Below, piece by piece: positions 1,813 to 18,462 of a stretch of DNA of 26,732 bases (within the stretch, counting starts at the first letter, position 1; every line of letters begins with the position of its first letter). Location: positions 6,478 to 33,209 of the forward strand of contig CAZUPG010000001.1 in assembly GCA_964622085.1 (NCBI GenBank), in the 5' to 3' direction. The translations under genes and the position numbers were made by a program. Below the pieces are notes generated by a model. The model was not told where the DNA came from. It did not search any database and saw only the letters and a program-made list of their open reading frames with translations. This stretch comes from an uncultured Pirellulales bacterium (lineage in GTDB: Bacteria > Planctomycetota > Phycisphaerae > Sedimentisphaerales > Anaerobacaceae).

Positions 1813-4182
1813 TTATGCCGTAGTGCCAAGACCCAAGATATTCATTTGTTGCTGTAGCAAGGCTAAGGTTCTCTCAAGACGAGCAAAGCGAGCCACCAGT
1901 CTGGCTTCTTTTTTAGTCAGGCGGTATTCTTCGAGCTCAATTTTGTCCTGGATTCCTTTTATTTGGTCGTCCACGTGTTCCTGGTCGATCTGGATAGAGC
2001 CGGTTGTTACCTTGAGCATTTTAGCCAAAGCATCTTCAATTGCACCGGTAAAGCCCTGCTTGACCCTGACTGTGGCGTATATGGTGCTGCTCGGCGTCCC
2101 TGTGATAGAAGCGGTAAGCTGGAGAGCATTTTCGGGCTGCTCTGGGTCACCATTGTCATCGAAAGTACTGTCTCCGGTAATGACATTGCCATCAATGGTT
2201 GCCTCGCGATACTGGGAATCATCCTCGCTTGAGAGTCTTATCCACGCTTTGTAGATGTCGCCATTCGCATCATACTCAACCTTAACCTTATAGCTGCCGG
2301 CGGTTGTATAATCGCTGCTGGCACTGTAGAACTCGATGGCATTGCTGTCGCTGCTGCCCGTTTTATCCGCCCCGATTACGGCAAGCACGCCCATATAGTC
2401 TTCGGCTATTGCTTCATCAAAGACGTTCGTGTCCAGATTCAATAACCCGTTCCTGTCAATCTCAAGGCCTATCTGGCCGGGCATCAGGAAGGTGTCGATA
2501 TCCTCTATGAATCCACTGGTCTGGGCGATAAGCGGTGTGCGAAGCCGGTCCCTTATGGTTGAAATAACGTAATCTCCCATTAACACACCGGCAGTCTTTA
2601 AGACATCATTATAGCCGGTCTTTTTCCGAATATAGGTAACGGCGAGATTGTAGGCGTCAATCATAGAGGTTAGTTTGTCTTTGACCGATGCAATATCTCT
2701 GGTTAGAGTTATCTCCTGCCCGTTCGAATCTGTCGTATCGTGCAGGTGCAATGTTACGCCACTTAAACAATCGTCTATCGTGTTGGAGCTTCTGCTGATG
2801 TAACCGTCACTTCCTTTTGTCGTTTCTGAAATACTTGCAGTTAGAGGACTTCCGCCGTTCGTCAAAAGAGAGCCGTCAATCATAATCAGGTCAACATCGC
2901 CTAATGTATTTGCAAAGGTAAAAGTCATTCCATCACTGAGAGGTCCTGACACTGATATGTCATCGGTATTAACAGTTGTCAACGCTTCAAGCGCAGCCTT
3001 AATGGTAGCGGCATCATCATTATAGTTAAGGGCGGTAGTTGTTTCGCCGCGGTAAGTGAGGGTGTATGTACCGTTGTCAGGGTAATTGCTAAGTGATACT
3101 GTTTGGACTTCGGAAACCGCTGACGTTGAAGGAAAGCCATCTACCTTGATTTTCGAGTCCTGAGCTGATTGTGTTTCGGTGAAATCCGCTGCTGCAAAAC
3201 CTGTAAGGTCCGCTGTTACGCTGCCACCCTCTGTTGACTGACTAATAGCAGGGATATCCAGATCTGTTGAGCCTGAGCCGGCATCGTAAGTTAGAGTAAG
3301 TTTCATCTTGCTTGTGCCGCAGGTACTATCTGCGAGGTGTATTTCACCATTGACTAATGTTGCAACAGCCCGGCCGTCAAACGCATCGTTGATTTCTGAG
3401 ATGAGGTGAGTCAGCTTGGTATTGCTTGTAACGCTAAACTGACCGCTTATAACGTTGCCGTTGTGGTCTTCACCACCGATGATTATTTTTTCACCACTGA
3501 CAAGCTCCCCGGTAAATTGGTCAAGCTCGGTAATCCTAGAGCTGAGCGTGGCATTGTCGTTGCTGACGGTAAAAGCTGATTGGGCCTGCAATACCTCGGT
3601 ATTGCTCGCATTGACGGAGATTTCATAATCAGAGCCGGCATCATTGCCGTTCAACACAAGATGATACATACCGTTATAATAAAGCAGGCCTGCGGTAACG
3701 CCGGGATTGTTCGCATCATTATTGATTAAGCCAACCAGGTCTTCCAGCGTTGTTGCATCGGTAGTCGTTATAGCTGTCTCCTGATGGTTATATGAGTAAA
3801 TAAAGGTGCCGGCTTCTACGTAATCCTCGGTGTATTCCTTACCGTTTGTATGGACCCAGCGTTCGGCATTAGCCAACTGGTTGATTACAACTGTGTGATT
3901 TCCTTCAAAAGCGTTATATGATGCTTCAGCGGTCAATATGTCGCTGTCACTTGAAGCGGTTGCAAAAGCACGAAGCTCATCGGCATCGGAAAGGAGTCTA
4001 ACAGCGCTTCGCAACGCATCGAGTTTGGTCTCGAGAGTGCTCAGAGCGTCTTTTCTCTCGTCCCACACACTTTTGCGTTCTTCGTACATATTGAGCGTAC
4101 GGCGCTCGATTGCCATCATTTGAGCGATGAGTGTGGTTGTATCAATACCTGTTAAAAGACCTGGAAAACGTAATTCTGACAC
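1813..4182 (-). CDS. fliD: Flagellar filament cap protein FliD (HAP2), enlarged to 789 aa with inserted domains
   Basis: FliD N-terminus 'GLLTGIDTTTLIAQMMAIERR'; 'AQDSKIKVDG' and 'SRSSNTIDDCLSGVTLHL'; C-terminal coiled coil 'LVARFARLERTLALLQQQ'. GTG start with an AAGGA RBS. Confidence 0.95.
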   Translation of the reverse strand: MSELRFPGLLTGIDTTTLIAQMMAIERRTLNMYEERKSVWDERKDALSTLETKLDALRSAVRLLSDADELRAFATASSDSDILTAEASYNAFEGNHTVVINQLANAERWVHTNGKEYTEDYVEAGTFIYSYNHQETAITTTDATTLEDLVGLINNDANNPGVTAGLLYYNGMYHLVLNGNDAGSDYEISVNASNTEVLQAQSAFTVSNDNATLSSRITELDQFTGELVSGEKIIIGGEDHNGNVISGQFSVTSNTKLTHLISEINDAFDGRAVATLVNGEIHLADSTCGTSKMKLTLTYDAGSGSTDLDIPAISQSTEGGSVTADLTGFAAADFTETQSAQDSKIKVDGFPSTSAVSEVQTVSLSNYPDNGTYTLTYRGETTTALNYNDDAATIKAALEALTTVNTDDISVSGPLSDGMTFTFANTLGDVDLIMIDGSLLTNGGSPLTASISETTKGSDGYISRSSNTIDDCLSGVTLHLHDTTDSNGQEITLTRDIASVKDKLTSMIDAYNLAVTYIRKKTGYNDVLKTAGVLMGDYVISTIRDRLRTPLIAQTSGFIEDIDTFLMPGQIGLEIDRNGLLNLDTNVFDEAIAEDYMGVLAVIGADKTGSSDSNAIEFYSASSDYTTAGSYKVKVEYDANGDIYKAWIRLSSEDDSQYREATIDGNVITGDSTFDDNGDPEQPENALQLTASITGTPSSTIYATVRVKQGFTGAIEDALAKMLKVTTGSIQIDQEHVDDQIKGIQDKIELEEYRLTKKEARLVARFARLERTLALLQQQMNILGLGTTA

Positions 4183-4273: not shown

Positions 4274-5221
4274 TCAAAGTATCTCTACGAGCCGGATATC
4301 AAAGGTCAGGTCTTTTCCTGCCAGAGGATGGTTGGCCTCCAATGTTACGCTCGATTCGGAGACATCGGCCACCACGACCTTAATTACTCTGCCGTCCGGC
4401 TGATGGTCTTGTAACTGCTGGCCCACCTCCGGCTTCAAGTGCTTCGGAAACTGGTCTCGACCTATTATCTGTGTCATTTCTTTACGGTGCGGGCCATACG
4501 CATTGTCTGCCGGTATTTTGGCGGTCTTAGATTCACCCACACTCATCCCGACCAAAGCATGTTCGAAGCCCGGGATTACCTGACCCTTACCTATCGTCAA
4601 CTGCAGAGGGGCACGGTTAACGGATGTATCGAATATCGTGCCATCTTCCAGTTTGCCGGTGTAGTGCACCCCAACAGTATCACCATATTTTGCCTGCAAC
4701 ATCGAGGACATTTCTAATAAATAAGCGTTATCAAATTGAAGGACCTCTCCCCATTTGCTCAATGTTTCTTTCGGCCAGGCAGAAATATGTTTTTCGTATT
4801 CGTTATTGTACAATGCCTCTTGCTGCAATACCCTTACCGGGGTTACTATCATAGCGAACCTGGATTTTTCTTTTATTAGATTTAATAAAAAGAGCCCGTC
4901 CTTTTCGCTGAGATGTTCCAATACATCACTGCAAATTATCATATCATAGTCACCCAGCGTGGGCAGGATATCTACTGCATTGCCAATATAAATGTTGTCA
5001 TAAATTTCCCGCTGTAATTGCCCTATATATTTTTCAAAAATTTCTATTCCGTCTATTCTGGTTTCAGGATTGAAATATCTGCCAAGCCGAACATCCGTAT
5101 ATTCTCTTGCAAGGAATCCGAACTTGCCAAACCCAATTCCTATATCAAGAACCGATACAGGATTTTTTTCAATTATCCTGTTACACACAGGGGCTAAAGC
5201 AGATGGTCTTGAGCACGGCAT
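4274..5221 (-). CDS. Class I SAM methyltransferase fused to an FKBP-type peptidyl-prolyl isomerase (SlpA/SlyD-like, insert-in-flap type)
   Basis: N-terminal part: 'VLDIGIGFGKFG' (SAM motif I), 'IDGIEIF', 'DVLEH'. C-terminal 142 aa from the ATG at 4702: 'GDTVGVHYTGKLEDGTIFDTS', 'IPGFEHALVGM', 'AYG', 'NHPLAGKDLTF'. No His-rich tail. RBS AAGGTG upstream of 5221. Confidence 0.9.
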   Translation of the reverse strand: MPCSRPSALAPVCNRIIEKNPVSVLDIGIGFGKFGFLAREYTDVRLGRYFNPETRIDGIEIFEKYIGQLQREIYDNIYIGNAVDILPTLGDYDMIICSDVLEHLSEKDGLFLLNLIKEKSRFAMIVTPVRVLQQEALYNNEYEKHISAWPKETLSKWGEVLQFDNAYLLEMSSMLQAKYGDTVGVHYTGKLEDGTIFDTSVNRAPLQLTIGKGQVIPGFEHALVGMSVGESKTAKIPADNAYGPHRKEMTQIIGRDQFPKHLKPEVGQQLQDHQPDGRVIKVVVADVSESSVTLEANHPLAGKDLTFDIRLVEIL

Positions 5222-5287: not shown

Positions 5288-8200
5288 CTAAACGGCTTGC
5301 AGTATTTTCTCATCATATTTTTGCCTGCCAAGCTCGCACTTTTGCAATAGCTGCCGGACCCGCTGGTTATTCGGGTCTATTTCGAGGCAGTCATTTAGCT
5401 CTGAACAGGCCTGCTCGAAAGCCATTTTGGCATAGACAGGCGACAAATTCGATTTTATATGCTCCTGGCCTATTGCAAGATAAGTCAGAGCAATCAAGCA
5501 TTTAGCATGCAATTGCCTCATATCAGGAGGTATCTTATCCCATGCAACGTCTGGAAACAGCTCATCGCAGCTGAAAGTATCCGTAAACCGCTTGAGAACC
5601 TCAAAATGGCTCCTGACTTTATCAGGATTTATAGTCCTCGACAGACTTTCCGGGTGCATTCGCCTCAGATGCAAGGCCTGCCGTAAATGGTGTTCCTTCA
5701 GGCCTGCCTTTACGAAACGTCTCATCATATCATAGTCCATACCCACTATTAGTTTTTCATCGTAAAGGCCTATCTTGTCGTAAACGCTCCTTCTTATGCC
5801 AAGTCTAAACGGTACTATCGGATGCCCGTGTCGGAACAGGTCTCTAATCAGATGCCTTCGGTCCTGATACTCGGGCTTATCCATTACCTTTATCGGCTCA
5901 CCGTCAGCATCAATCAGCAAGACATCGCAATATACAAGGTCGGCCTCGGGATGTTTCTCAAATTCCGCCAGGTGCTTGGCAATAAAGCCCTGTGTCATCA
6001 CATCATCTGCATCGAGAGGCATAATATATTGCCCTTTGGCCCGCCTTACGGCATGGTTTAGGGCATTGGACATGCCGCCGTTTTCCTGGTAGAAATATCC
6101 AATTCTTCCATCGTCATAACATGAAATCACCTTACTGGTATTGTCCGTAGAGCCATCGTCGATGATTATAAGTTCAAATTCTGGATAGTCTTGAATCAGG
6201 ACACTTTTTATTGCCTCGCCGATATACTCAGCGCCATTGTAAACAGGCATTATTATGCTAACCGGCGGGCCGCTCGTGCTGTCCTGATGCAAAGAGAGGA
6301 CAGAAGACAGAGGATGGTGATGGATGAGGGACGAAGGACGAGAGACGAGAGACGAAGTGGCTTCTGACATCTGATTTCCGACATCTGACCCTTCGACTGC
6401 GCTCAGGGCAGGCTTCTGACTTTGTTGGGAGACGGGGTTAACTGCTGAACCCGCAGCAGTAGCACGGCCATCCTGGCCGTGCTTGCACGGGCTGGAAGCC
6501 CGTGCTACGAGAGCATCAATTTCTCCGAGCATCTGAAGTACCTGGGCATCTTCGCCAACATTTGCCAAATAATTTAAGAGAAGTGTTTTGGCTTGCCTGT
6601 ATTTGCCGGATGCTTTCAATATCGCATAGCAATTAGTGATAGTATTCCTGTCCCACGGATTGAATTTGTATGCCTTAGTAAAGTATCTAAAAGCATTTTT
6701 TGTATCTCCGGCCTCCATCGCCATCAGCCCGTAATCATTCAGTGCCTTGACGTGGTTGGGAAATTTTTCCAGCAGCTCTTCGATTTGCGCATTAGCTTTT
6801 AGCACATTTGCCTGCAACAACAGTACATCCGGATGATTCGGGTATTTCTGCAATAACTGTTCGCATTCAAGGTCAGCCTGTCCGGTATCATTATTTTCGA
6901 GCAACTTCTCTATAGTATTAACTTCTCTGGCAATATTGATTCTGTCCCACAGTTTCGAAATATATTCCGGAGCTTTGTCTGTGCTGAAATTTTCTCGTAC
7001 AAAATCAACCGCTCTGTGGCGGATAGACGGGTCGGCGTCGACCATCTTCAAGCCGGCGATTATTGTCTCTGCCAGTTTTTCAGGCGTATTAGGTAAATAT
7101 AACAGGCCTGTCCGCCCATCAGCTAAGGTGGCAGCCGTACCTCCGGCATCATGCGCAGCGGGGATACACCCGCATGCCTGTGATTCCAGGATTACCATCG
7201 GGAAAGTTTCAAGCTTTGAGGGCAGGACAAGCAGGCTGTGCTTTGAATAGATTTCCGGCATATCTTTATTGTTAACATAGCCATGAAAATATGTACCTTC
7301 CGGTTTTGTGCTCTTGAGATTATCTCCATAGGCATCTCCACCGCGCCACATCGAACCATCCCCATAAATGTGCAACTCGGCATCACTTATCTGCCGGCGG
7401 ACTAATCGGAAAGCGTCCATAAGAATGTGAACACATTTATGAGGATGTAATGCACCCGCATACATTATAGAGTGATTGTCCCTTTCGACATCTTTCGGCG
7501 AATACACATCTGTATCAATAGGGTTGGGAATAATCAGGAACTTTTCATTTCCGATGCCGTGATTATGCAGTGAGGCCCTGTGTAACTCCGATAGACAAAC
7601 CACTATGTCGAAGTCGCTCATATGTGACAACGATACGAGGTCGTCAGCCTGCCAACAGTGCTGCCACAGTATCCAAATCTGTCCCTGAGGCTTAGTCAAA
7701 CCTTTGAAGTGGCGAATGTGCGTTGCGAAAAACACCACATCATAATTTGCAAGGAACTGCTCTCTTTCGCTAATCTGCGGTAACGGAACAAAGTGCAAAG
7801 ATTCATACTGCTCCGGATGAGTTACAAGATTGCCGGTTATGTGAGCTTCTATGCCGTGGCTGTCGCGAAGCATTCTTGCGACGTTCAGTACAGCCATTAC
7901 CGTCCCTGCAGGACTGGTTTCACTGATGTTGCCTATTCTGTCATAATAGAACAGTATCTTTTGTTGACCGACACGTGGCGGCAACATATCCGGTACCCGA
8001 TCAAAATCAGGTCTGATGCTTAAGAGCTTCTCCAAACTGCTACGTGCTCCAACAAGGTCACCCTCGCTTTTCTGTAACATCATCAGAGCAAAAAGTCCCT
8101 GCCAGTCATCTTTTTTCGCTTTCTCCACCGCTGCCTTGTAATCCTCAAATGCCTCACTGACCTGACCCCGACGCCTCCGTATTAGTCCACGCCAGAAGTA

Positions 8201-11200
8201 CGGCAGTCCACGTTCAGGGTATTTTTCAATTGCTTTAAGGATTTCTTCATAAATGCTATCCGGACAGTTCGCAATCACCTGCCAGGCCTGAACCAGGCTT
8301 GTAACTGTATATAAATCAGGATGACAGGTAGCTATAAAGGCCCAAGCCAACCTTCGGTTATGCTTGATCGTCTTATGATACATGCTCTGAGGATTTATTC
8401 GATAAAGGAAAAGTTTTTCCTCTATCCGTTTAACAACAGGATTGTGCTTTGAACAACCAATCCAGAAATTCCAGTCTTCCGGCTGAACGATAACGCTTAA
8501 CAGGTTATCATACCCACCAACTTTGCGCCAAAGCTCCTTCCTGTAAAGGGACGCGTAAGGCATGGTGTTCTCAAGCATAACTCTTGACCTTGAGTACTTA
8601 GCAGGTACCCATTCACCATTTGAAGTCCCGAATTCCTGCAGGCTAGCAAAGACGATATCCACCTTTTGTTCCTGCTGGATAATATCCACCGCCTTTTGCA
8701 TAAACGTCGGTTCAAACATATCGTCACTATCCAGCGGTAAAATCCACTCATTCACGGCAGCCAATATTGCCGTATTTCTCGTATCTGCCAATCCAGTATT
8801 TTGTGGTTTGTCGATAAGCCGAATCTTATGATTTGGATACTTTTCTATTAACTGCCTTGTAACCTCAACAGTATTGTCGGTGCTGCAGTCATTGACAATA
8901 ACACATTCCCAATTTTTATACGTTTGATTTATAATAGACTCAACCGCCTCAGGAAGATAACGTGCCTGATTGTAGCACGGGACAATTACTGATATTCCGA
9001 CTGCATTGTCACCAGCTTTTTTGAAATAGAAGTCTACTTCCTGATGAACCGCATTGCTCACAAAGCTGGTATACTTGCTTATGTCAATAATCATTCCCTG
9101 CTGATAAGTTTGCGCCAATCTTTCAGGGCTGTAGTCCTCATTTATGCCTGACCTATTTTGCTCATATACGTTCTGAACCTTATTAGCCGGGTTGCAGAAA
9201 GTTACACTCGTACGGCAGCAAAGCAGCATTGGCCGGCTGTTCTCGAACTGCCTGTTTGAAGCCATTTGTGATTCCAGCTCATTCGGATTTGAAAAATCTC
9301 GTTCGGACAGAAAATCTAACATTTCCTTCGAGCGATAAACCGAGCTTGAGACCTCCAGCGGATAGCCGAAATCCCGCTCGGCCGCAGTCCAGTCGTATTT
9401 CACTATAGAATCTGTGAGTTTTTCGAACGGAGGAAGTTTCTGCAGGGAATTTAACATATAACAATAAGTTGTATTTTCACCCAGCCGAAGCGAAAAACCA
9501 ATCGCATCGGCCTCTCTATCCAAAGCATCAGTTACATCTCCGATGTAAAAGTCGCGGGTATAGATGTCGTCATCCACCATAAACAGAATGTATTTAAACG
9601 CTTCTATGACCTGCAGTGTCTGCTGTCTAAAATCTCGCTCTTCAATAAAGGTAATATCCTCGAAGCATTTTTTTAAATCATCATATTGACCTTTATGTAA
9701 TGGGGTAGTGGCTTTGTAAAGTATTGTCAGATGGACATTGTTGCTGTCTTTACAATGCAATAGGAACGATTCTATCGTTGCTCTAAGCTGCATTGCCCGG
9801 TCCTTACTGAAGATTAGGGCGGCAGAGTCTTTTTGGGTCTGCTCTTTTTTTTGCTTTTGGCTGCTCTGGAACCTTTCGGTGATTAAATCGATGTCATGCT
9901 CGATTATCTTTTTGTTCTCAGCGGTCGCTCTTGTGTGAAAGGATGATATTCTCTTTATAAGAGCTGATGATATTCGCTGCTTGGTGGCTTCATCCAATCT
10001 GTGCTCGATGTATGGTACTGTTTTGAAATAAAAATATAGAATATCCTTGTGACCAAGTTGATTTGCTTCCAACTTTGCAGATAAATTCCCTGACCATTGT
10101 CTGCAGTATGCAAGCATTTGGTCTAAATAGTAAAAATTTTTGCTTTTTAAGATTCTACACCACATATCAATGTCTGCTGCACAGCCGACGGCTGTATCAA
10201 AATCCCCAGCTTTGTTAATATCATCTCTTCGAAAGAGTATTGCTGCTGGCCATCCTACCGGCCTCTTTCCCAAAAGATAATTTTTGATAAATTCTTCACC
10301 ATTCTCTTTTGTGCTTTCATTAAATAGCTTGTATAGATTGTTACTATTTTTTATGTTGCTATCCTCATCAACGATAAAGCAATTACAACAAACAACTCCG
10401 ACGTCAGGATGTTCATTTAGAATCTTTACCTGTTCAGCGACACAATTATTTTCGAGTATGTCATCATCTCCTATTATTTTGATATACTCTCCCGAGGATA
10501 ACGACACAGCCTTATTCCAATTCTTTATGAACCCTATGTTCTCTTCATTTCTGACAAACGTAATACGCTCTATGTCAGAGTAGGCCTTCGAGAGTTTTAT
10601 GGTTTCGTCTGTAGAACAATCATCTAAAACCAGAATTTCTATGTTGGAGTAAGTTTGATTGAGAGCGGAATCTATCGCTATTTTGAGATAATTTACTCTA
10701 TTGAAGGTCGGGATTAGTATAGATACCTTTGGTATTTGTTTTTTAGGACTAACATTTTTACAACTATGGGCAGCACAGATTATGAAGTCTTTTTTGTCAA
10801 TATGGTTTTCAATGTTGTGAGTTTGGTAGTTTTGGTATTTAAAAAACTCAGGCGCAAGACCATTTGCGGATAACCATCGCTTAATTTTTTCCTCATCAAT
10901 ATAAAACGTCGAATGAAAACCCATGTTAATTGCTTCCGGGCTTCTCTCTTGCATATAAGGTGTTGAAAAAATAAGTGTCCCACCAGGTTTAAGTGCACGG
11001 CTAAAAACTCTAAACAATTTAGGGATGTCATCTTCGGTTAGATGTTCAACTGTCTCAAAAGAAACGATATAATCAAATAGAGATTGATACTTTAAATCCA
11101 GTAGATTTGCATGAACAAATTCAATATTCTGGATGTTTTTGTAACGAACTCTTATTTCCTTTATGACTTTTTCGTCAATATCTACGCCAATTACCCGGTT

Positions 11201-12958
11201 AGACTTTTCTGCCAGCATAACGCTGCCGTAACCTGTCCCGCACGCAAAATCTCCGACTACTTTTCCAGGCGAAATGATAGATTTAGCGTACTCATATCTG
11301 CGGCAGTGACTCTTTTGATATATATCCAATTCATCGAATTTGGTATTTCCCTTGTAAAATATATCAACACGCTCGCCATTACCGTCTAAGTTGGTTTTGC
11401 CCGGCAGGGTGACAGAATCGCCTGCCAGCCCAGAGACGCCAATAGACTCAGGGTCATTTGCCTTCGCATAAATATCTCCCCATAGCAACTCGTTATCCAG
11501 GTGCTCTATGTGATGAAACAGCATCTCTGAAGAAACCCATTCTGAGAACACAAATTCCGGTCTTTCCCCCAAGCATAAATTAAAATGCTTGTATCCGAGA
11601 GCCTGTAAATGAAGTAAACACTTCCTGGCATTTTCCAAGAATTCGATTGCGAATTCAAATGCAATATAGGGGACCGGCTGAGAAAGACCTTTTAAGACCG
11701 CAAGCTCAAAACCTTCTACATCAATCTTGCAAAATTTCGGACGTCCATAAACTTCTATCATTTCATCCAATGTCGTGACTTCCACTGGAATGACTCTATC
11801 CCAAGAATAGTCAGTAAATCTGCCGGTTTTCCATTCATCAGAAAATGTCGAAATAGTATTTGCCTTGCTGCATATCGAAAGTTGCATTTGCCCGGCCTCG
11901 CCTGCAAGACCGTTGTCCACGATAGTTACGTTCTGATTATTCTGATACTTTTCGCGCAACACTCTTACACACTCTGGTTGTGGCTCAAAACAAACCACGT
12001 GAGCACCCTTCATAAGATATACATCAGTTTTTGAGCCAACATTTGCACCCACGTCAAATACAATATCCCCCTCACCAATCCAATCATTAACGACGAGACT
12101 TTCGCTTTCGGGTTGCATACATAGTTGCGTATCCAAGTCACCCTGCTCTCGCACCGTGTTAACTTTACCTGGCTTGACCGCCTCCCTCTTGGCTGACGTT
12201 TGAATATTGCCCGGCAGGGGGACAGAATCGCCTGCCAGTGCGGCCCGAAGCTGGTTTTTCCAAGCTTCCCAAGTTGGCCTCTCTTCCTGGGCAACGGTGC
12301 TTTCCAACAACAATTCCTCCGCCACTTTTAGTTGCTCTTGTAAGCAAAAGGGTTTAGATTTCACAGCAACAACCGTCACGTTCGATAAATAAGGTTCTTT
12401 AGACCATGAACTTGACAGCGTTTGGATCTCCCCAAACCCCAATGCTCTGAGCGTGTGCTCGAACCTCTCAGGGAACCAGTGATCAATATGATAGCCCCAA
12501 TTAGCTGCCTGGTCTCCAGCCAAGTGGCGAACAACTCCCATTTTAATCTTCCATGAGGTATCAGAAACCAGCATTCTTGCGCTAGCTATCAGGTCGGGTG
12601 TCTCGATATGAAGCCTACCCCCAATTTTCAACCACTTGTTCCATTTAATCAGCATAGCAAGTGCTGTAACCCGGCTAAAGTGCTCAAAAACGTGATGAAG
12701 CCGTATCTCGTCAACTGACCCAAGAGGGAAATCCAGGCTCTTTATATCAGCGTAAACATCCGCTTTTACCCGCATCAAATTATGTTCGGATTGGGGATAA
12801 TCAATATTTATATAACCGTCAAAATGCCGCTCTCCACAACCAAGATGAAGCCGAAGCGCTATGCCCTCTTGCCACAATCCGAAATCTTTAAGCTGCTGCA
12901 ATACATCAATATCGTTATCGATGATCTTGGCACAGTTGCTTTCTATCTGAGCCATCAA
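5288..12958 (-). CDS. 2556-aa multidomain glycosyltransferase/methyltransferase: MT, FkbM-MT, MT, GT2, GT-A-like, GT2, TPR, GT4, TPR, repeat-derived linker, GT2, helical/TPR-like tail
   Basis: Approximate modules: MT1 12860-12340 ('LHLGCG..GYINID'); FkbM 12090-11460 ('FDVGANVG', 'KIDVEGFE'); MT3 11380-10760 ('GDFACGTGYG', 'FETVEH'); GT2 10735-9900 ('SILIPTFNR', 'DDCSTD', 'GDDD'); GT-A-like 9830-9020 ('IFSKDRAMQL', 'VDDD'); GT2 9000-8350 ('SVIVPCYNQ', 'LDSDD'); TPR 8260-7990; GT4 7965-6940 ('ETFPMVILE', E-x7-E); TPR 6920-6520; GT2 6270-5620 ('SIIMPVYNG', 'LDADD'). Start is TTG at 12958 or ATG at 12955. Confidence 0.9.
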   Translation of the reverse strand: MMAQIESNCAKIIDNDIDVLQQLKDFGLWQEGIALRLHLGCGERHFDGYINIDYPQSEHNLMRVKADVYADIKSLDFPLGSVDEIRLHHVFEHFSRVTALAMLIKWNKWLKIGGRLHIETPDLIASARMLVSDTSWKIKMGVVRHLAGDQAANWGYHIDHWFPERFEHTLRALGFGEIQTLSSSWSKEPYLSNVTVVAVKSKPFCLQEQLKVAEELLLESTVAQEERPTWEAWKNQLRAALAGDSVPLPGNIQTSAKREAVKPGKVNTVREQGDLDTQLCMQPESESLVVNDWIGEGDIVFDVGANVGSKTDVYLMKGAHVVCFEPQPECVRVLREKYQNNQNVTIVDNGLAGEAGQMQLSICSKANTISTFSDEWKTGRFTDYSWDRVIPVEVTTLDEMIEVYGRPKFCKIDVEGFELAVLKGLSQPVPYIAFEFAIEFLENARKCLLHLQALGYKHFNLCLGERPEFVFSEWVSSEMLFHHIEHLDNELLWGDIYAKANDPESIGVSGLAGDSVTLPGKTNLDGNGERVDIFYKGNTKFDELDIYQKSHCRRYEYAKSIISPGKVVGDFACGTGYGSVMLAEKSNRVIGVDIDEKVIKEIRVRYKNIQNIEFVHANLLDLKYQSLFDYIVSFETVEHLTEDDIPKLFRVFSRALKPGGTLIFSTPYMQERSPEAINMGFHSTFYIDEEKIKRWLSANGLAPEFFKYQNYQTHNIENHIDKKDFIICAAHSCKNVSPKKQIPKVSILIPTFNRVNYLKIAIDSALNQTYSNIEILVLDDCSTDETIKLSKAYSDIERITFVRNEENIGFIKNWNKAVSLSSGEYIKIIGDDDILENNCVAEQVKILNEHPDVGVVCCNCFIVDEDSNIKNSNNLYKLFNESTKENGEEFIKNYLLGKRPVGWPAAILFRRDDINKAGDFDTAVGCAADIDMWCRILKSKNFYYLDQMLAYCRQWSGNLSAKLEANQLGHKDILYFYFKTVPYIEHRLDEATKQRISSALIKRISSFHTRATAENKKIIEHDIDLITERFQSSQKQKKEQTQKDSAALIFSKDRAMQLRATIESFLLHCKDSNNVHLTILYKATTPLHKGQYDDLKKCFEDITFIEERDFRQQTLQVIEAFKYILFMVDDDIYTRDFYIGDVTDALDREADAIGFSLRLGENTTYCYMLNSLQKLPPFEKLTDSIVKYDWTAAERDFGYPLEVSSSVYRSKEMLDFLSERDFSNPNELESQMASNRQFENSRPMLLCCRTSVTFCNPANKVQNVYEQNRSGINEDYSPERLAQTYQQGMIIDISKYTSFVSNAVHQEVDFYFKKAGDNAVGISVIVPCYNQARYLPEAVESIINQTYKNWECVIVNDCSTDNTVEVTRQLIEKYPNHKIRLIDKPQNTGLADTRNTAILAAVNEWILPLDSDDMFEPTFMQKAVDIIQQEQKVDIVFASLQEFGTSNGEWVPAKYSRSRVMLENTMPYASLYRKELWRKVGGYDNLLSVIVQPEDWNFWIGCSKHNPVVKRIEEKLFLYRINPQSMYHKTIKHNRRLAWAFIATCHPDLYTVTSLVQAWQVIANCPDSIYEEILKAIEKYPERGLPYFWRGLIRRRRGQVSEAFEDYKAAVEKAKKDDWQGLFALMMLQKSEGDLVGARSSLEKLLSIRPDFDRVPDMLPPRVGQQKILFYYDRIGNISETSPAGTVMAVLNVARMLRDSHGIEAHITGNLVTHPEQYESLHFVPLPQISEREQFLANYDVVFFATHIRHFKGLTKPQGQIWILWQHCWQADDLVSLSHMSDFDIVVCLSELHRASLHNHGIGNEKFLIIPNPIDTDVYSPKDVERDNHSIMYAGALHPHKCVHILMDAFRLVRRQISDAELHIYGDGSMWRGGDAYGDNLKSTKPEGTYFHGYVNNKDMPEIYSKHSLLVLPSKLETFPMVILESQACGCIPAAHDAGGTAATLADGRTGLLYLPNTPEKLAETIIAGLKMVDADPSIRHRAVDFVRENFSTDKAPEYISKLWDRINIAREVNTIEKLLENNDTGQADLECEQLLQKYPNHPDVLLLQANVLKANAQIEELLEKFPNHVKALNDYGLMAMEAGDTKNAFRYFTKAYKFNPWDRNTITNCYAILKASGKYRQAKTLLLNYLANVGEDAQVLQMLGEIDALVARASSPCKHGQDGRATAAGSAVNPVSQQSQKPALSAVEGSDVGNQMSEATSSLVSRPSSLIHHHPLSSVLSLHQDSTSGPPVSIIMPVYNGAEYIGEAIKSVLIQDYPEFELIIIDDGSTDNTSKVISCYDDGRIGYFYQENGGMSNALNHAVRRAKGQYIMPLDADDVMTQGFIAKHLAEFEKHPEADLVYCDVLLIDADGEPIKVMDKPEYQDRRHLIRDLFRHGHPIVPFRLGIRRSVYDKIGLYDEKLIVGMDYDMMRRFVKAGLKEHHLRQALHLRRMHPESLSRTINPDKVRSHFEVLKRFTDTFSCDELFPDVAWDKIPPDMRQLHAKCLIALTYLAIGQEHIKSNLSPVYAKMAFEQACSELNDCLEIDPNNQRVRQLLQKCELGRQKYDEKILQAV
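6294..6420. repeat. Two oppositely oriented 7-mer tandem arrays, in frame within the mega-ORF
   Basis: Purine-rich array GAGAGGA CAGAAGA CAGAGGA ... GGGACGA AGGACGA GAGACGA GAGACGA (6294-6355), then pyrimidine-rich TTCTGAC ATCTGAT TTCCGAC ATCTGAC ... TTCTGAC (6362-6420). A 10-bp direct repeat GGCTTCTGAC occurs at 6359-6368 and 6411-6420. Confidence 0.75.
6390..6414. repeat. 24/25-bp REP-like element (family B), encoding 'PALSAVEG' on the - strand
   Basis: CCTTCGACTGCGCTCAGGGCAGGCT, flanked by TCTGAC on both sides. It matches the nested insert at 21091-21114 at 18/24 positions. Confidence 0.7.
6459..6508. repeat. GTAG-type REP doublet (REPIN-like, family A), in frame within the mega-ORF
   Basis: GTAG-CACGGCCA-TCC-TGGCCGTG on the + strand and GTAG-CACGGGCT-TCC-AGCCCGTG on the - strand: two inverted GTAG-tagged hairpins. 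Translates as VARASSPCKHGQDGRAT. Confidence 0.85.
11397..11428. repeat. 32-bp direct repeat, copy downstream of the FkbM module
   Basis: TTGCCCGGCAGGGTGACAGAATCGCCTGCCAG; 31/32 identical to 12207-12238. Confidence 0.95.
12207..12238. repeat. 32-bp direct repeat, copy upstream of the FkbM module
   Basis: TTGCCCGGCAGGGGGACAGAATCGCCTGCCAG; exactly 810 bp from the other copy. Confidence 0.95.
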
Positions 12959-12991: not shown

Positions 12992-13324
12992 TCAAATACT
13001 ACTGCGGTAAGTCTCTATAGTCCTTCTGCCTTTGCGAACCCGGTTTAGCTTTTCGCTGGTTTCGGTTTTCGCAGCGGTGATGGCCAGACATAGACTATCG
13101 TATAATTTCGCTAGACGCTCACGTTGCCCCGCATTAAATGCGGGGTCGGCCAGTTCAAGAATCCCTGTCTGTGCGATTTTTTCCACAAGAAAACCGACCT
13201 GCTCGCCCAAAATCTCAACATCGTTAATGTTACCCTGCCGAGCCATCTCTATCTGCTTTTCTAACAGATAACGCAAGTCCCTTAATTCGGATAAAAATTG
13301 TGATGTCTGTTTATCTGCCCTCAT
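12992..13324 (-). CDS. Small helical protein, putative FliT/FlgN-like flagellar export chaperone
   Basis: 110 aa, predicted helical ('LRYLLEKQIEMARQG...LVEKI...LAKLYDSL'), ending 'RKGRRTIETY' like FlgN/FliT-type chaperones. ATGA overlap with the upstream TPR gene. The family call is by resemblance and context only. Confidence 0.5.
   Translation of the reverse strand: MRADKQTSQFLSELRDLRYLLEKQIEMARQGNINDVEILGEQVGFLVEKIAQTGILELADPAFNAGQRERLAKLYDSLCLAITAAKTETSEKLNRVRKGRRTIETYRSSI
13127..13145. repeat. Palindrome CCCCGCAT-TAA-ATGCGGGG (family D), in frame in the 110-aa gene
   Basis: 8-bp perfect stem of the same design as CCCCGCGT-AAA-ACGCGGGG at 22612-22630. Encodes DPAFNAG. Confidence 0.65.
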
Positions 13325-13959
13325 CTAATCTGAATTCCTGTCTGTTTTTTTTGAGCCAAACTATGCTCAACTTCCTCCAGAAGATTAGCTGCATCTTTAT
13401 GGCTGGCGTCCAAAGTTAAAACGTCCAGGAGCATTTTTTTGGACTGCTCAAACCTGCCATCCTTCATATATAGTGCTGCCAGAGAGAACATGACGGAGGC
13501 GTCACCTGGGTGCATGTCCAGATATACCTCAAGATAGTGGGTGACTTTCTCAAATGAACCCATCTTGCAGGAAGCCTGGAACAGGCCCAAAAGAGCTATC
13601 AGGTTGTCGGTGTCCAGCTCCAGGCATTTTAGATATTTCTCAAAGGCCTGCTTGTAATCGGCTCTTTGCTGTGCGACCATAGCCAGACCGGCATAAGCCT
13701 TGGCACAATCAGGGTCGAGCCGACAAGCTACCCTAAAAGCCGTATCAGCATCGTCTAAGAGATCCTTTTGCAGGGCAACTACTCCAAGGCCAACGTAAGG
13801 ACCTGGCTCGTCGGGCCCCAGTGACGCTGCTTTTTCATAGCACTGTTGTGCCTGTGCGTAGCTGCCAACAGAGGTATAACAATCACCGAGCTCTTGCAAA
13901 ACTTCATAATGCTGGGTCGGCTCATGCTGTTCAGTGATATTATTTTGTGTTATGCCCAT
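13321..13959 (-). CDS. Stand-alone tetratricopeptide-repeat protein
   Basis: Consecutive TPR-like units ('LGDCYTSVGSYAQAQQCYEKAASLGP', 'AYAGLAMVAQQRADYKQAFEKYLKCLELD'). The ATG at 13959, preceded by GAAGGG, is a better start than the ORF-track start at 14034. Confidence 0.85.
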   Translation of the reverse strand: MGITQNNITEQHEPTQHYEVLQELGDCYTSVGSYAQAQQCYEKAASLGPDEPGPYVGLGVVALQKDLLDDADTAFRVACRLDPDCAKAYAGLAMVAQQRADYKQAFEKYLKCLELDTDNLIALLGLFQASCKMGSFEKVTHYLEVYLDMHPGDASVMFSLAALYMKDGRFEQSKKMLLDVLTLDASHKDAANLLEEVEHSLAQKKQTGIQIR

Positions 13960-15616
13960 AGCAATTTTTCCCTTCAAGTATTTGTTCTGCTTTTTCGAGT
14001 AGTTCAATCGCGGGGTTAAAATTCTTTTTTTCACGTTTGACCTTTGCCTCTAACAAAAGCGTCTCTACCGTAGGACGCCGCCGGTTAACTTCGCAGCTGA
14101 TTTCAAGTGCCCTGGTATGATTACCGGCTTTGAAAAAGGCCTTTGCGGCCAATGTCTCCATCCATATTTCGTTTTGGTAATGGTCGGCGATATATTCAAA
14201 TATCTGCGATGCTTCCACCCAGCTTCCATCTTTTCCCGCTGACTGGGCCTGCTGAAGTAATTTATCAAACTGAAACGGGATTTCCTCAGGACGCAGGCGC
14301 CTTATTACAATACCGGCGGCCTTTAGAGACTCGCGAACTGGCAAATTTGGAAAGCTCGCACGAGCATACTGTAAGTCATCTTTTCTGACCACCGCTGCCC
14401 AGAGCTTATCTGTTGAGCCTTCCAGTTCAAATCCCTCGCGGTTAACTGAGGGGTCCCCAGACATTCCTTTTTGCGTTTGTGGGTCCTCTGAACTGTTAAT
14501 CAGAGCATAAAGTGAATCCTCCACCCAAAATTCCCTTATAGGAAATCCGCTTGGTACTAAAATAATATATTCGCCGTCACATCTGGCCAAGGCTGCGTCT
14601 ATGCGCTGGGCCTCAGATACCTGTGGGGCAACCGGCACGTAGATTATGTTGGGCATATCTGTGTTTAGCCTGTTGAAATCAGCTTGCGGCAGCGGCAGAT
14701 AAACCTCGTAGGGATAGAAGGTATGCCGCCAAATAGAACCGAGCGTTTTTCCCGCTTGTTTGTTCAGTCGGTCCGTAGCAAAAATGATAGACATATCCTT
14801 AATCTTTGGCCAGGGCTTGGGTGGCCTTGTGGTTCGTATCGCCAGGACATTCCTGGTGTACTCACTCTTATCTTTGCGCCGCTGCACCGAGATCCTGTCG
14901 GATTCACCAACAGGGCTGTAGAATTCGCCCGTGATTTCGTGGACGTGGTAAAAATCTGAGAAAAAAGCCAACCGCCGGGTTAAGTCCCAGTCAATTAGAA
15001 TGTTAAGGTCCTCATTATAAGGCCCGACCTTTTCAAGTAAATCCCTGCTGTGCATCAGGCTTACATGCAGCGAATGATTGAAGTAGAGCATAAGAAAACG
15101 GTCGAAGTCTCTGCTGACTTCAACAACTTTGCTCAAAATTTGTCGGCTGCCATCCGGCATAATTTTACAATATGCTTTGTACAAGTCACTGTATGCAACC
15201 TGGCAGTCGGTTTCATTTTCGAGGGCATTGACTAATGTTTCAATATGACTGGGATAATACAAATCATCGTCGTCAAGGTAGGCGATATATTTGCCTTCAA
15301 CTCTGCTTATAGCTTGGTTGAGAGAAAAGGCCTTGCCGCGGCTTGCTTTTCTGTTAATAAATGTAAGCCGCGGGTCGTTAAATGAATTAACTACATCGCT
15401 TACGTCCTCACCGCCGTCATTGACTACAATAACCTCCAGATTTCTGTAACTCTGGCGTAAAACACTGTTCAGGGCCTCATATAAATATCGGGGCCGGTTG
15501 AAAGTCGGAATAAGGACACTGACAACTGGCTTGGCCTTTATCTGCGTCCCCAAACACATTTCATTGCATTTGGGGTTCTCCTTATAGTTTTCTGTCATTC
15601 CAAAACTACCTAACAT
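13940..15616 (-). CDS. GT2-family glycosyltransferase with a degenerate second GT-like region and C-terminal TPR-like helices
   Basis: 'VSVLIPTFNRPRYL', 'VNDGG', 'YLDDDD'. The true start may be the ATG at 15598. Confidence 0.88.
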   Translation of the reverse strand: MLGSFGMTENYKENPKCNEMCLGTQIKAKPVVSVLIPTFNRPRYLYEALNSVLRQSYRNLEVIVVNDGGEDVSDVVNSFNDPRLTFINRKASRGKAFSLNQAISRVEGKYIAYLDDDDLYYPSHIETLVNALENETDCQVAYSDLYKAYCKIMPDGSRQILSKVVEVSRDFDRFLMLYFNHSLHVSLMHSRDLLEKVGPYNEDLNILIDWDLTRRLAFFSDFYHVHEITGEFYSPVGESDRISVQRRKDKSEYTRNVLAIRTTRPPKPWPKIKDMSIIFATDRLNKQAGKTLGSIWRHTFYPYEVYLPLPQADFNRLNTDMPNIIYVPVAPQVSEAQRIDAALARCDGEYIILVPSGFPIREFWVEDSLYALINSSEDPQTQKGMSGDPSVNREGFELEGSTDKLWAAVVRKDDLQYARASFPNLPVRESLKAAGIVIRRLRPEEIPFQFDKLLQQAQSAGKDGSWVEASQIFEYIADHYQNEIWMETLAAKAFFKAGNHTRALEISCEVNRRRPTVETLLLEAKVKREKKNFNPAIELLEKAEQILEGKNCYGHNTK

Positions 15617-15634: not shown

Positions 15635-17137
15635 TCACACACTCGGGTTCCCATTTTGCGATTTATTGCAAAATTGGGGCTCAGTTTGTTGCGAATCTAC
15701 TTCAGCTCCAAGTTGAGCGAAAATATCATTCACTTTGTTCAACTGATTTTTCAACGCGTAGTTCTCTTCAATAAATTTGCGATACCTTTGGGGTTCGTAT
15801 GTATCAGAGAGAATCTGTTCGCAGAATTCTTCGGAGATGTTAAATAAAAACTCTGATGGGAAAATCTGGCTTGCCCCCGGAAAATTATGGATAACCGGCT
15901 TCAATCCGCAGGCCATACCTTCCAACAGTCCCATACCCTGACTTTCTATAATGCTCGTGGAAACGATGTAATCTTTATCCGCAAGCCAGGAACTCACATC
16001 CTGCTGCCAGCCATCAAAAAACACTACATCGCCGAGGTTAAGAGCATCAACCATATGCCTTACATACTGTTCGAGGGCCTTATCCTGGAAGGAACCAGCA
16101 AAGAACAACCGATAGTCGTGGTCGATGTAGCGCAGCTTTTGCATACACTGCAGAATGAAAGCAGGGTTCTTTACCATTCTCAGATTGGCCAAAAAAGCAA
16201 TATTTTTGCAGCGTCTGCGATTTGTATACGTAAATTTTTGAAGATTTACGCCATTGGGAATAGTAACTATCGACGTTTGGCCTTCGAGATTGGGAACTGC
16301 CTTGATAAGAGCATCTTTAACAAAACTATTGCCGACGATTATAAGGGCGTCGATATTGGCCCAGTCGATTTCGAGCGGCCAGTGAAGATAGGCCTCGTAT
16401 CGGTGCAGTCTAATAATGCTTTTGCAAACTTTAGGCATCTTCGAGGCGGTCACGGCAAGATTGGTGCACCACTCGAACCAGGAGATATCGCTCCACTCCA
16501 TCATTTCATACAGTTGTTCTTCTGTTTGGCCTTTGAAAAGGCGCGTTTCAAAACGCTGCTTTGTGAACTCGGCAATTTCGTTGAGAAAGGTCATACCGTC
16601 GCCGCCGCAGAAGAAGGCGATCTTGGGTCTTTTGCTTCGGATTACTTCAATCATTGGTTTAAGAATCCCCTGCTCGGGCCAGATTGTTAGTGAGTGAAGC
16701 AGCATTTCGATAGCGTCGCCCTTTCTATTCTGCTGCAGCAACACGTTGGCCGTTCTATTAAGTACGTCCACATTCAATATGCCCAACAACTGCATATCGT
16801 CAAAAAGCTGCATTGCTTCTTTTGCTTTGCCGACAGCAAGATAGCTTTCAGCCAAATTCCAAACTATCTCAGCGCTATTGGCCTGTAGGCTCTTTGCTTT
16901 GACAAAATGATTGATGGCTTCGTCCGAGCGGCCCAGGCAATAGAGAATTGCCCCTACATCGTTCAGTACCTGTGCATCGTCGGGCGCCGTGCGAAGATGT
17001 TTTTGAATACAATCGAGAGCTTCCTGATATTTGCCGGCTTCAGCTAATTCCAAACCTCTCTGGTAATAATTGGGGTCTCCAAACACACTATTTTGCGTTT
17101 GGTGCACCTTCGAATCTGTCCCCTGTACCATCTGCAT
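15635..17137 (-). CDS. TPR-containing GT4 (GT-B fold) glycosyltransferase
   Basis: N-terminal TPRs ('AQVLNDVGAILYCLGRSDEAINHFVKA'), 'WSDISWFEWC', 'RLHRYEAY', 'IPNGV', and the GT4 E-x7-E motif 'ESQGMGLLE'. AGGAG spacing favours the ATG at 17131. Confidence 0.88.
   Translation of the reverse strand: MQMVQGTDSKVHQTQNSVFGDPNYYQRGLELAEAGKYQEALDCIQKHLRTAPDDAQVLNDVGAILYCLGRSDEAINHFVKAKSLQANSAEIVWNLAESYLAVGKAKEAMQLFDDMQLLGILNVDVLNRTANVLLQQNRKGDAIEMLLHSLTIWPEQGILKPMIEVIRSKRPKIAFFCGGDGMTFLNEIAEFTKQRFETRLFKGQTEEQLYEMMEWSDISWFEWCTNLAVTASKMPKVCKSIIRLHRYEAYLHWPLEIDWANIDALIIVGNSFVKDALIKAVPNLEGQTSIVTIPNGVNLQKFTYTNRRRCKNIAFLANLRMVKNPAFILQCMQKLRYIDHDYRLFFAGSFQDKALEQYVRHMVDALNLGDVVFFDGWQQDVSSWLADKDYIVSTSIIESQGMGLLEGMACGLKPVIHNFPGASQIFPSEFLFNISEEFCEQILSDTYEPQRYRKFIEENYALKNQLNKVNDIFAQLGAEVDSQQTEPQFCNKSQNGNPSV
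15644..15682. repeat. Palindromic repeat, family C, in frame at the 3' end of the TPR-GT4 gene
   Basis: CGGGTTCCCATTTTGCGATTTATTGCAAAATTGGGGCTC; about 32/40 identical to 20477-20516 by hand alignment. Confidence 0.7.
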
Positions 17138-17192: not shown

Positions 17193-18395
17193 CTATTCAA
17201 GAAAATCCAGCAGCGATATAGACATAAGTTTTCCAGCTACTGATAACGACATTTGGTACAGAACCTCACGACGAGAGAGGTCTATGGCAATCTGGGCAAT
17301 GTCGGCTTCCTGCAAACGGGTGATTTCATCTTCCGCATTGAACTTTATATTCTCAAAGCTGTCTTTGAGATTGTCAAGGAACCCGATTTTTGACCCTATA
17401 GAAACAGATTTCTGTACCAAAAGATTGTGCACCTCTTCCAAAGAACCTATTGAATTTTTTATCGCCTCCATCAATTTAGTGCCAGAGAGCTCCCTTTCAT
17501 TTTTCAATATATCTCGAACACTAATAAGTGTGTCGAATATGTCATAAGTCCCTGGCATGCGCACCATATCGACTCCGGTACCGGTTATTCCGGTGGTATC
17601 AACATACAAAACCTCACCAGTGTCGGCGTGGGTCACCATTGTATTCGCATCACCCGGCGGCACAGTTACCTCCGTATAGCTCGTCGGGTCATCGTCAATT
17701 GACAACCTGTATGGAGTACCTGGTCCACCCGGCTGGGTTATCTCAAGCCAGACATCTCCTCGGACGCTCGATGTGCCGGTGCCGGCTTTAGCTCCGGTAT
17801 CACCAAGGAAAGTCGGGGCGCTGCGGCTGTTCGAACGAAAGATGTCATCGCCTGCGTAAAAAACGCTGGATTGCACCCCGGGAGCCACCTCTATATTTCG
17901 ACTCTCACTACTGCCCTGGTAAGTTACACTGGTAATTTCTCCATTAGTGCGCTCTACAAGATATGGTGCCGAGGATGTATTGCTTCCTCCAAAAAAGTAT
18001 TGGCCCATACGTTTGGTACTAGCCAACGATACTATCTGCTCTAAGGCATCGTCGATTGCTTCTGCGAGCCCGTCTCGCCCCTCTTCCCCATAGGTGCCAC
18101 CGACAATTTGCGTTAGATGTGCTCTCTTCTCAGCAAAAACCGACATCATATCATCAATAACGGTGGAGGAAAGCTCCAGTGTGCTAATGGCCTCTGATAT
18201 ATTATTCGTATAATTTCCCAGAGACTTTTGCTGAGAGTTGAGCCCTAAAACCTGGTGTGCAGCAGAAGGGTCATCAGAAGCTCGGTTTATCCGCGAACCG
18301 GTCGATGCCTGTTCCTGCAAACGAGTCATTGCCTCGCTATGCAGATACAAAGCAAAGCTGATATTATTATAAATACTACTAAGATTTCCACTCAT
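17193..18395 (-). CDS. flgL: Hook-filament junction protein FlgL (HAP3)
   Basis: 'LQEQASTGSRINRASDDP', 'YFFGGSNTSSAPY', C-terminal 'LQEADIAQIAIDLSRREVLYQMSLSVAGKLMSISLLDFL'. Follows flgK. Confidence 0.95.
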   Translation of the reverse strand: MSGNLSSIYNNISFALYLHSEAMTRLQEQASTGSRINRASDDPSAAHQVLGLNSQQKSLGNYTNNISEAISTLELSSTVIDDMMSVFAEKRAHLTQIVGGTYGEEGRDGLAEAIDDALEQIVSLASTKRMGQYFFGGSNTSSAPYLVERTNGEITSVTYQGSSESRNIEVAPGVQSSVFYAGDDIFRSNSRSAPTFLGDTGAKAGTGTSSVRGDVWLEITQPGGPGTPYRLSIDDDPTSYTEVTVPPGDANTMVTHADTGEVLYVDTTGITGTGVDMVRMPGTYDIFDTLISVRDILKNERELSGTKLMEAIKNSIGSLEEVHNLLVQKSVSIGSKIGFLDNLKDSFENIKFNAEDEITRLQEADIAQIAIDLSRREVLYQMSLSVAGKLMSISLLDFLE

Positions 18396-18411
18396 TTATA
18401 CCTCTGCGTAT

Positions 18412-18458
18412 CACGGCCAGGCCTGTCCCGAGCGAAGCCGAGGGGATGGCCGTGTTAC
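18412..18458 (-). repeat. Family A REP half-element carrying a nested 24-bp family B insert, in the flgK-flgL gap
   Basis: The - strand reads GTAA-CACGGCCATCC-[CCTCGGCTTCGCTCGGGACAGGCC]-TGGCCGTG. Confidence 0.8.
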
Positions 18459-18462
18459 CTTT

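Follow-up and report, generated by a model that had tools for sequence, protein, structure and literature searches.

What would a bacterium build with three methyltransferases (MTs) and five glycosyltransferases (GTs) fused into one polypeptide, and why is the gene encoding them placed among genes for the flagellum? This question is raised by a stretch of 26,732 nucleotides (hereafter the window) from an uncultured Pirellulales bacterium (assembly GCA_964622085.1, contig CAZUPG010000001.1, positions 6,478 to 33,209 of the forward strand), the minus strand of which carries a giant multi-domain gene with a product of 2,555 amino acids (aa). The window is a flagellar cluster of the Planctomycetota (Pirellulales-like) type, and this setting, together with analogy to characterised glycosylation systems, indicates that the giant protein is probably a cytoplasmic, soluble multi-enzyme belonging to a flagellar glycosylation island of such a bacterium. 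GT genes are embedded in the flagellar cluster beside hook-associated genes, between flgK-flgL and fliD, where flagellin glycosylation islands are usually found (PMC12645811, PMC4875605), and the planctomycete loci that extend across this slot have it filled as well.

The gene is delimited as follows:

5288..12955, minus strand: giant multi-domain gene, from the ATG at 12955 to the TAG at 5288-5290; product of 2,555 aa.

A preliminary description of this DNA, made without database searches, had reported an unbroken open reading frame (ORF) of 7.67 kb, and indeed no internal stop is present in 5288..12958 on the minus strand. Counted from a TTG, the frame comprises 2,556 codons, a stop-free run with a chance of about 1e-53 if uniform codons are assumed. 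Codon 2 is the ATG at 12955, which has an AAGGGG sequence 10 nt upstream and is likely the true start, giving the product of 2,555 aa. The protein collection that we consulted contains one entry of 2,555 aa (P0001) matching this product with 100% identity and coverage; an exact-protein look-up returned no recorded contig for it.

The complete protein and nine segments of it were scanned with Pfam; together with NCBIfam scans and structure prediction, this revealed the following modules, among them S-adenosylmethionine (SAM)-dependent MTs and tetratricopeptide repeats (TPRs); residue numbers refer to the 2,555-aa product, and GC denotes guanine plus cytosine content:

12311..12955, minus strand, aa 1-215: MT0 module, predicted class I SAM MT fold with motif I LHLGCG at aa 36-41; no family model above threshold.
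11441..12085, minus strand, aa 291-505 (Pfam domain 300-435): FkbM MT module (PF05050, E=7e-17) with DVGANVG.
10742..11368, minus strand, aa 530-738 (domain 560-700): MT25 class I MT module (PF13649 and PF08241) with DFACGTG; GC 0.36.
9836..10741, minus strand, aa 739-1040 (domain 745-950): GT2a module (PF00535, E=3.5e-31) with DDCSTD and DDD; GC 0.37.
9008..9835, minus strand, aa 1041-1316: X module, predicted divergent GT-A fold with VDDD and HQE; no Pfam or NCBIfam model.
8216..9007, minus strand, aa 1317-1580 (domain 1322-1546): GT2b module (PF00535, E=6e-36) with DSDD.
7961..8215, minus strand, aa 1581-1665 (repeat 1587-1650): TPR1 block, with a weak TPR_2 match; kept in relatives.
6932..7960, minus strand, aa 1666-2008 (domain ~1680-2000): GT4 (GT-B) module (PF00534 and PF13692) with an E-x7-E motif.
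6491..6931, minus strand, aa 2009-2155 (repeats 2010-2150): TPR2 block (TPR_19, TPR_14 and TPR_16).
6272..6490, minus strand, aa 2156-2228: Ser/Ala/Gln low-complexity linker, found in this copy only.
5291..6271, minus strand: GT2c module, aa 2229-2480 (domain 2233-2450; PF00535, E=7e-36; DADD), with a TPR-like C-terminal tail, aa 2481-2555; kept in relatives.

In total, the giant protein contains three SAM MTs, four GT-A GTs, one GT4 and two TPR blocks. The count of three MTs, five GTs and TPRs in the preliminary description was therefore correct, with the qualification that one MT (MT0) and one GT (X) are assigned by fold and not by a family model; its observation that core motifs are kept also holds, as all eight catalytic modules have the motifs expected of them. 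The modules with family models lie well above the cut-offs: the FkbM module scored 62.4 bits against 22.7 for PF05050 and 89.2 bits against 37.7 for TIGR01444, the three GT2 stretches 108.8, 124.2 and 124.2 bits against the PF00535 cut-off of 23.3, and the GT4 module 90 bits against 26.4 for PF00534, with its E-x7-E motif (ETFPMVILE) at aa 1916-1924. The GT-A modules are only 24-28% identical to one another and are therefore not recent internal duplicates. Ratios of nonsynonymous to synonymous divergence (dN/dS) are 0.12-0.31 across modules, and every module is under purifying selection. The low-complexity linker, which includes an HHH run and has a GC of 0.57, is missing from all relatives, where about 24 aa occupy that point.

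The assignment of MT0 and X was based on predicted structures. MT0 matched Methyltransf_11 with E=0.005 and 17.9 bits, under the Pfam cut-off of 21.2, and NCBIfam has no family for it; X (aa 1041-1316) had no match in Pfam or NCBIfam, and no CAZy, Pfam or NCBIfam family can be assigned to it. Searches of both modules against the PDB, as single sequences and as profiles, returned nothing usable. The folds were then predicted with AlphaFold2 (AF2) from alignments of homologous domains and compared with the PDB by Foldseek. The X model, with a predicted local distance difference test score (pLDDT) of 92.6, best matched 1foa (GnT-I; E=5e-9, TM 0.57), followed by SpsA, POMGnT1 and TarP, and VDD (V87, D88, D89) and the HQE motif are invariant in 21 sequences. 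For the MT0 model (pLDDT 90.2), 49 of the 50 Foldseek matches listed were MTs, the best being 2p8j (E=3e-8), and the LHLGCG motif I is invariant. According to these models, X has the fold of a GT-A glycosyltransferase and MT0 that of a class I SAM MT. The X family comprises approximately 4,400 clusters at 50% identity, and stand-alone MT0 and X proteins also exist, with generic annotation only. MT0 and X represent two large enzyme families lacking a Pfam or NCBIfam model, which could be defined and assayed.

The position of the giant gene was examined in relatives by a scan of one genome per species, in which loci were numbered L; P numbers denote entries of the protein collection. The nearest relatives were found only in metagenome-assembled genomes (MAGs) of Planctomycetota, mostly Pirellulales. 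Reading the planctomycete loci that span the slot (L001-L012, L014, L017 and L018, several of them partial) revealed a conserved frame, in which flgF to flgL are followed by genes for a TPR-GT4 protein, a GT2 protein, a TPR protein and a FliT-like protein, then by a variable gene and fliD, with flhB and fliR on the opposite strand. In the window, the slot is bounded by hook-associated and filament cap genes:

17193..20448, minus strand: flgK and flgL (hook-associated), the upstream edge of the slot; TIGR02550 scored 183.9 against a cut-off of 127.2 for flgL.
1813..4182, minus strand: fliD (789 aa; filament cap), which closes the slot downstream.

The slot itself is occupied in relatives by a single frame of 1,338, 2,090, 2,195, 3,178, 3,993 or 4,240 aa, or by two to three frames, and in some of them it includes further enzyme kinds, namely GT9, a radical-SAM/SPASM fusion, a deacetylase fusion and sugar-nucleotide enzymes. 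The preliminary description had noted that multi-GT fusions exist in O-antigen or capsule polymerases and in flagellar glycosylation islands; the locus is a flagellar glycosylation slot and not an O-antigen or capsule locus. Two relatives have additional genes. In a Pirellulales locus (L005:1556-8836), the slot also contains a 1,422-aa radical-SAM/SPASM, MT and FkbM protein and a 1,003-aa MT and polysaccharide-deacetylase protein. In L008 (L008:1423-9188), where the giant has 3,178 aa and includes a GT9 module, the genes upstream of it encode a transketolase-like protein, an aldo-keto reductase, two epimerase/dehydratases, a TPR-MT protein and a GHMP kinase; they resemble a pathway dedicated to one sugar, without counterpart in the window.

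Comparison of nucleotide identity and synonymous divergence (dS) along the gene and its flanks revealed a mosaic:

FkbM module: nearest L006, 93.6% nt identity, dS 0.14.
GT2a module: nearest L006, 89.7% nt identity, dS 0.27.
MT25 module: nearest L012 (80%) and L014 (77%); no match in L006, where the stretch is of different length.
X to TPR2: nearest L002, L003, L004 and L007, about 80% nt identity.
MT0 module: nearest L010, 85% nt identity.
Flanking flagellar genes: 66-81% nt identity, mostly 67-76%, to all relatives.

Against the same locus L006, dS reaches 1.15-2.1 for flgG, flgI, flgK, flgL, the TPR-GT4 gene and fliD, far above the values for the FkbM and GT2a modules. The composition is also uneven, with GC ranging from 0.36 to 0.57 between modules of the giant gene. 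In particular, MT25 and GT2a (window 9836-11368) have a GC of 0.36-0.37 and a third-position GC (GC3) of 0.33-0.38, compared with a GC of 0.45-0.48 in the neighbours and of 0.45-0.50 in the flanking flagellar genes, which is consistent with the recent import of these two cassettes. The low dN/dS together with the mosaic divergence indicates that the modules are functional and have moved as cassettes. Module exchange, which had been suggested in the preliminary description, is thus borne out by slot products of 1,338-4,240 aa in relatives and by single modules with much lower dS than the flanking genes: modules have been swapped between lineages as cassettes, and the slot is accordingly a strain-variable determinant, by inference of a variable flagellar surface glycan. 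A scan for phase-variable homopolymer tracts and tandem repeats found none; the sole candidate is a run of eight A on the coding strand (A8, positions 9845-9852), located exactly at the GT2a/X junction. No other homopolymer of at least eight bases occurs inside the gene.

Beyond the planctomycetes, the MT0 and X modules recur in a fixed order. Among the 120 best full-length matches, all of them multi-GT/MT proteins of 1,400-4,000 aa, MT0 was present in 101 and X in 87; both were present in 84, with MT0 before X in 84/84. Of 86 X occurrences in the 120 listed homologs, 69 are directly followed by a GT2 module, which is GT2b-like in 38. MT0...X-GT2 forms a core that is conserved as a functional unit. 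MT0-bearing giants were also observed beside flagellar genes in other lineages: between flgL and fliC in a Gammaproteobacteria MAG, directly after flgL-fliW-csrA-fliC in GCA_044224905 (L020), after flgL-fliW-csrA with fliS, fliD and fliC nearby in an acidobacterial MAG, and about 9 kb from fliC in a Methylomirabilota MAG. In the non-planctomycete loci L019, L020, L021 and L023, fliC directly adjoins the island or lies no more than about 10 kb away. Convergent to the giant GT gene of GCA_044224905 is a gene of 2,607 aa (L020:18119-25942) whose product carries PATR repeats of the autotransporter type. The cultured Desulforamulus reducens MI-1 (L024; CP000612 1498632-1519501) encodes stand-alone MT0 (64% identity) and X (50%) proteins, neighboured by genes for a GDP-mannose dehydratase-like protein, an epimerase, ManC, a phosphomannomutase and three TPR-GT proteins, and the arrangement in Collibacillus is similar; these gene neighbours are a weak hint that the donor of X may be a GDP-linked hexose or 6-deoxyhexose. 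Giants of cyanobacteria (Microcoleus) were considered as relatives and set aside, since they have the FkbM domain alone in common and their loci are not flagellar.

The remaining genes of the window complete the flagellar cluster. The plus strand carries fliR and flhB. On the minus strand, the order is fliD, an MT-FKBP fusion, the giant gene, a 110-aa gene, a TPR protein, a 558-aa GT2, a 500-aa TPR-GT4, flgL, flgK, flgN, a rod-binding-like ORF, flgI, flgH, flgA, flgG and flgF. The less familiar members are the following:

15635..17137, minus strand: TPR-GT4 protein of 500 aa, a conserved neighbour; TPR at aa 24-115 and GT1 at aa 311-442, in the layout of FlmG.
13940..15616, minus strand: GT2 protein of 558 aa, a conserved neighbour.
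13321..14034, minus strand: TPR protein, 237 aa as listed, a conserved neighbour.
12992..13324, minus strand: 110-aa protein; weak FliT (PF05400) match in syntenic counterparts, no NCBIfam family; candidate export chaperone.
4274..5221, minus strand: MT-like and FKBP fusion of 315 aa, between the giant gene and fliD.
25892-26707, minus strand: ORF of 271 aa upstream of flgF; no family match, NCBIfam included.
21029-21445, minus strand: ORF of 138 aa between flgI and flgN; weak match to the FlgJ rod-binding N-terminus.

The TPR ORF at 13321-14034 is listed with a GTG start and a 95-nt overlap with the end of the 558-aa GT2 gene; its true start is probably further downstream, because homologs align over about 210-230 aa. 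In the 315-aa fusion, which the window shares with L010 alone (76% identity), the N-terminal half is weakly class I MT-like and the C-terminal half is an FKBP/SlyD-type prolyl isomerase. Promoter and terminator scans of the window remained at the level of shuffled sequence (29 promoter sites against 30.4 expected, and 22 terminator sites against 18.2 expected).

How would such an enzyme work? Flagellin is O-glycosylated in the cytoplasm before export, and the genes responsible show linkage to those of the flagellum (PMC12645811). Following this precedent, we propose that flagellar filament proteins, most likely flagellin, would be O-glycosylated in the cytoplasm ahead of type III export. The acceptor would be primed by the conserved small enzymes of the island, i.e., the FlmG-like TPR-GT4 protein, the 558-aa GT2 and the TPR protein; the two TPR blocks of the giant protein may hold the acceptor, as suggested by FlmG; the glycan would be extended by GT2a, X, GT2b, GT4 and GT2c, each of which might add a single linkage, as the preliminary description had supposed; and the three SAM MTs may O-methylate particular sugars, possibly capping the chain, if WsaE is a guide. 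The maximum of KD19 in the giant protein is 1.19, below transmembrane strength, and family scans of the window ORFs found no Wzm/Wzt or other ABC transporter, initiating phosphoglycosyltransferase, flippase, ligase or oligosaccharyltransferase. The lack of a transmembrane segment and of a transporter, flippase or oligosaccharyltransferase in the window fits direct glycosylation of a protein in the cytoplasm.

Several observations weigh against this proposal. Flagellin glycosylation islands usually sit in the flagellar cluster and are genetically linked to flagellin (PMC12645811, PMC4875605), whereas no flagellin gene adjoins the island here: tblastn with the termini of Escherichia coli FliC found none in the window or in the Pirellulales loci, a weak test that missed flgL as well. 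With no fliC in the Pirellulales cluster, the filament gene or genes must lie elsewhere in the genome. The window also lacks genes of nucleotide-sugar biosynthesis. Moreover, the 19.6 kb seen of a locus with an MT0-X giant in a "Bacteroidota" MAG includes no flagellar gene, and the stand-alone MT0 and X genes of D. reducens are not adjacent to flagellar genes, so the enzyme core is not exclusively flagellar. That some MT0-X genes occur in non-flagellar sugar loci also lends something to the alternative that the giant protein is the polymerase and terminator of a lipid-linked surface polysaccharide (O-antigen, capsule, exopolysaccharide or S-layer glycan), comparable to WbdA/WbdD, Klebsiella O7 ORF6 or WsaE, and merely embedded in the flagellar cluster. 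Several GT modules and MTs in one soluble chain are indeed what such systems possess (PMC2943079, PMC11231755, PMC3482155), and the best partial NCBIfam matches of the giant protein are exopolysaccharide and teichuronic-acid GT2 enzymes, all far under their cut-offs. We nevertheless consider a lipid-linked polysaccharide unlikely, given that Wzm/Wzt, an initiating phosphoglycosyltransferase, a ligase and an oligosaccharyltransferase are missing from the window, that the position between flgL and fliD is kept in all planctomycete loci spanning the slot, and that giants of four other lineages lie beside or near flgL or fliC; in addition, no long coiled-coil ruler is evident, although no coiled-coil predictor was run.

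The gene neighbourhood bears equally on which protein is modified. The acceptor might be a flagellar or exported protein other than flagellin, such as the hook-associated proteins or the FliD cap, which is unusually long at 789 aa. FliT is the chaperone of FliD, and the Pirellulales slot is flanked by flgK, flgL, a FliT-like gene and fliD with no fliC nearby. This too appears improbable to us, as the giant gene adjoins fliC in other phyla and all characterised flagellar islands act on flagellin (PMC12645811). There remains the suspicion of an artefact, with the ORF either joined from related strains during assembly or decaying, most of its domains being inactive. This suspicion is invited by a metagenome-derived contig, by a mosaic gene whose modules resemble different relatives and by the uneven GC. 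We judge it very improbable. The giant genes of 1,338-4,240 aa that relatives have in this slot speak strongly against an assembly artefact. Each module junction was matched independently in other contigs, namely MT0-FkbM in L006, P0011 and P0019, the order FkbM-MT25-GT2a-X in P0008 and P0009, and the C-terminal block X-GT2b-TPR-GT4-TPR-GT2c-tail in at least eight loci with 55-84% identity, which argues against a chimeric assembly, and that possibility was rejected. The identity to L006 is 90-94% and not about 100%, the frame is intact over 7.67 kb, all catalytic motifs are intact and dN/dS is low in every module. Two of the outcomes that the preliminary description had named as fatal to it, a chimeric ORF or mostly dead domains, were accordingly not encountered, and the gene is a real modular fusion, as it had claimed.

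In a more speculative version, which we consider less likely than not, such proteins would be glycan assembly lines, in which a soluble megasynthase assembles a defined, methylated hetero-oligosaccharide on flagellin itself. The order of modules would reflect that of the glycan, diversification would proceed by cassette recombination in the manner of nonribosomal peptide and polyketide synthases, and the MT0...X-GT2 core would be a widespread unrecognised flagellar family in at least five lineages. An eight-domain chain rearranged in a fixed slot would be a natural experiment in the encoding and diversification of glycan structure, and if module order maps to glycan order, flagellar glycans would be predictable from sequence and the modules would be parts for glycoengineering. 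The enzymology of flagellin glycosylation has been called poorly defined (PMC12645811).

To what extent is the system new? The preliminary description considered it the best candidate for an undescribed system, which was an overstatement, as both flagellin islands and MT-GT fusion enzymes had been described before (PMC4875605), and databases already contain giants of this sort by the hundreds, though without names. In the open-access literature, we found no paper on these giant proteins, and nothing relevant on planctomycete flagellin glycosylation or on multidomain flagellar GTs. The new elements are the scale (a single chain with eight catalytic domains, and relatives reaching 4,240 aa), the unmodelled MT0...X-GT2 core, cassette recombination in a fixed slot and recurrence in several phyla.

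Among known systems, the flagellin islands of enterobacteria (PMC4875605; reviewed in PMC12645811) are similar in that GT and MT genes lie in the flagellar cluster beside hook-associated or filament genes, and they likewise show strong strain variation, soluble enzymes and MT-GT fusions (PMC4875605). However, these islands encode one to three GTs as separate proteins of ordinary size, whereas here five GT and three MT domains are found in one chain of 2,555 aa, two more GT proteins are present in the slot, no fliC is adjacent, and there are no Maf or nonulosonic-acid genes: the Maf domain (PF01973) is absent from the Pfam matches of the giant protein and of all its window neighbours, and no family of the pseudaminic/legionaminic acid (Pse/Leg) pathway matched any window ORF. 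FlmG of Caulobacter crescentus binds flagellins through its TPR region, and transfer of the sugar is the task of its GT-B domain (PMC7591256). The domain layout of FlmG, with the TPR N-terminal to the GT-B, is repeated both in the 500-aa neighbour and in the TPR1-GT4 unit of the giant protein; FlmG, however, has 596 aa and a single GT, which transfers pseudaminic acid, the pathway genes of which were not found here.

Similarly, WsaE of Geobacillus stearothermophilus is a soluble protein that joins an N-terminal O-methyltransferase to two GT domains, and its methyl cap ends chain growth (PMC2943079). It resembles the giant protein in fusing MT and GT domains in a soluble chain, and its glycan is destined for a protein; it differs in having three catalytic domains and in depending on a lipid carrier, Wzm/Wzt export and an oligosaccharyltransferase, none of which has a counterpart in the window. 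Multimodule enzymes with MT-bearing terminators also build O-antigens (PMC11231755, PMC3482155), and in WbdA/WbdD, Klebsiella O7 ORF6 and Bcs3 (PMC3482155, PMC11231755, PMC10299916) several GT modules and MT terminators are found per chain, with modules varying between serotypes. Those systems have up to about four catalytic modules, coiled-coil rulers, lipid-linked acceptors and dedicated exporters, whereas the giant protein combines eight catalytic modules with TPR blocks and is encoded in a flagellar cluster.

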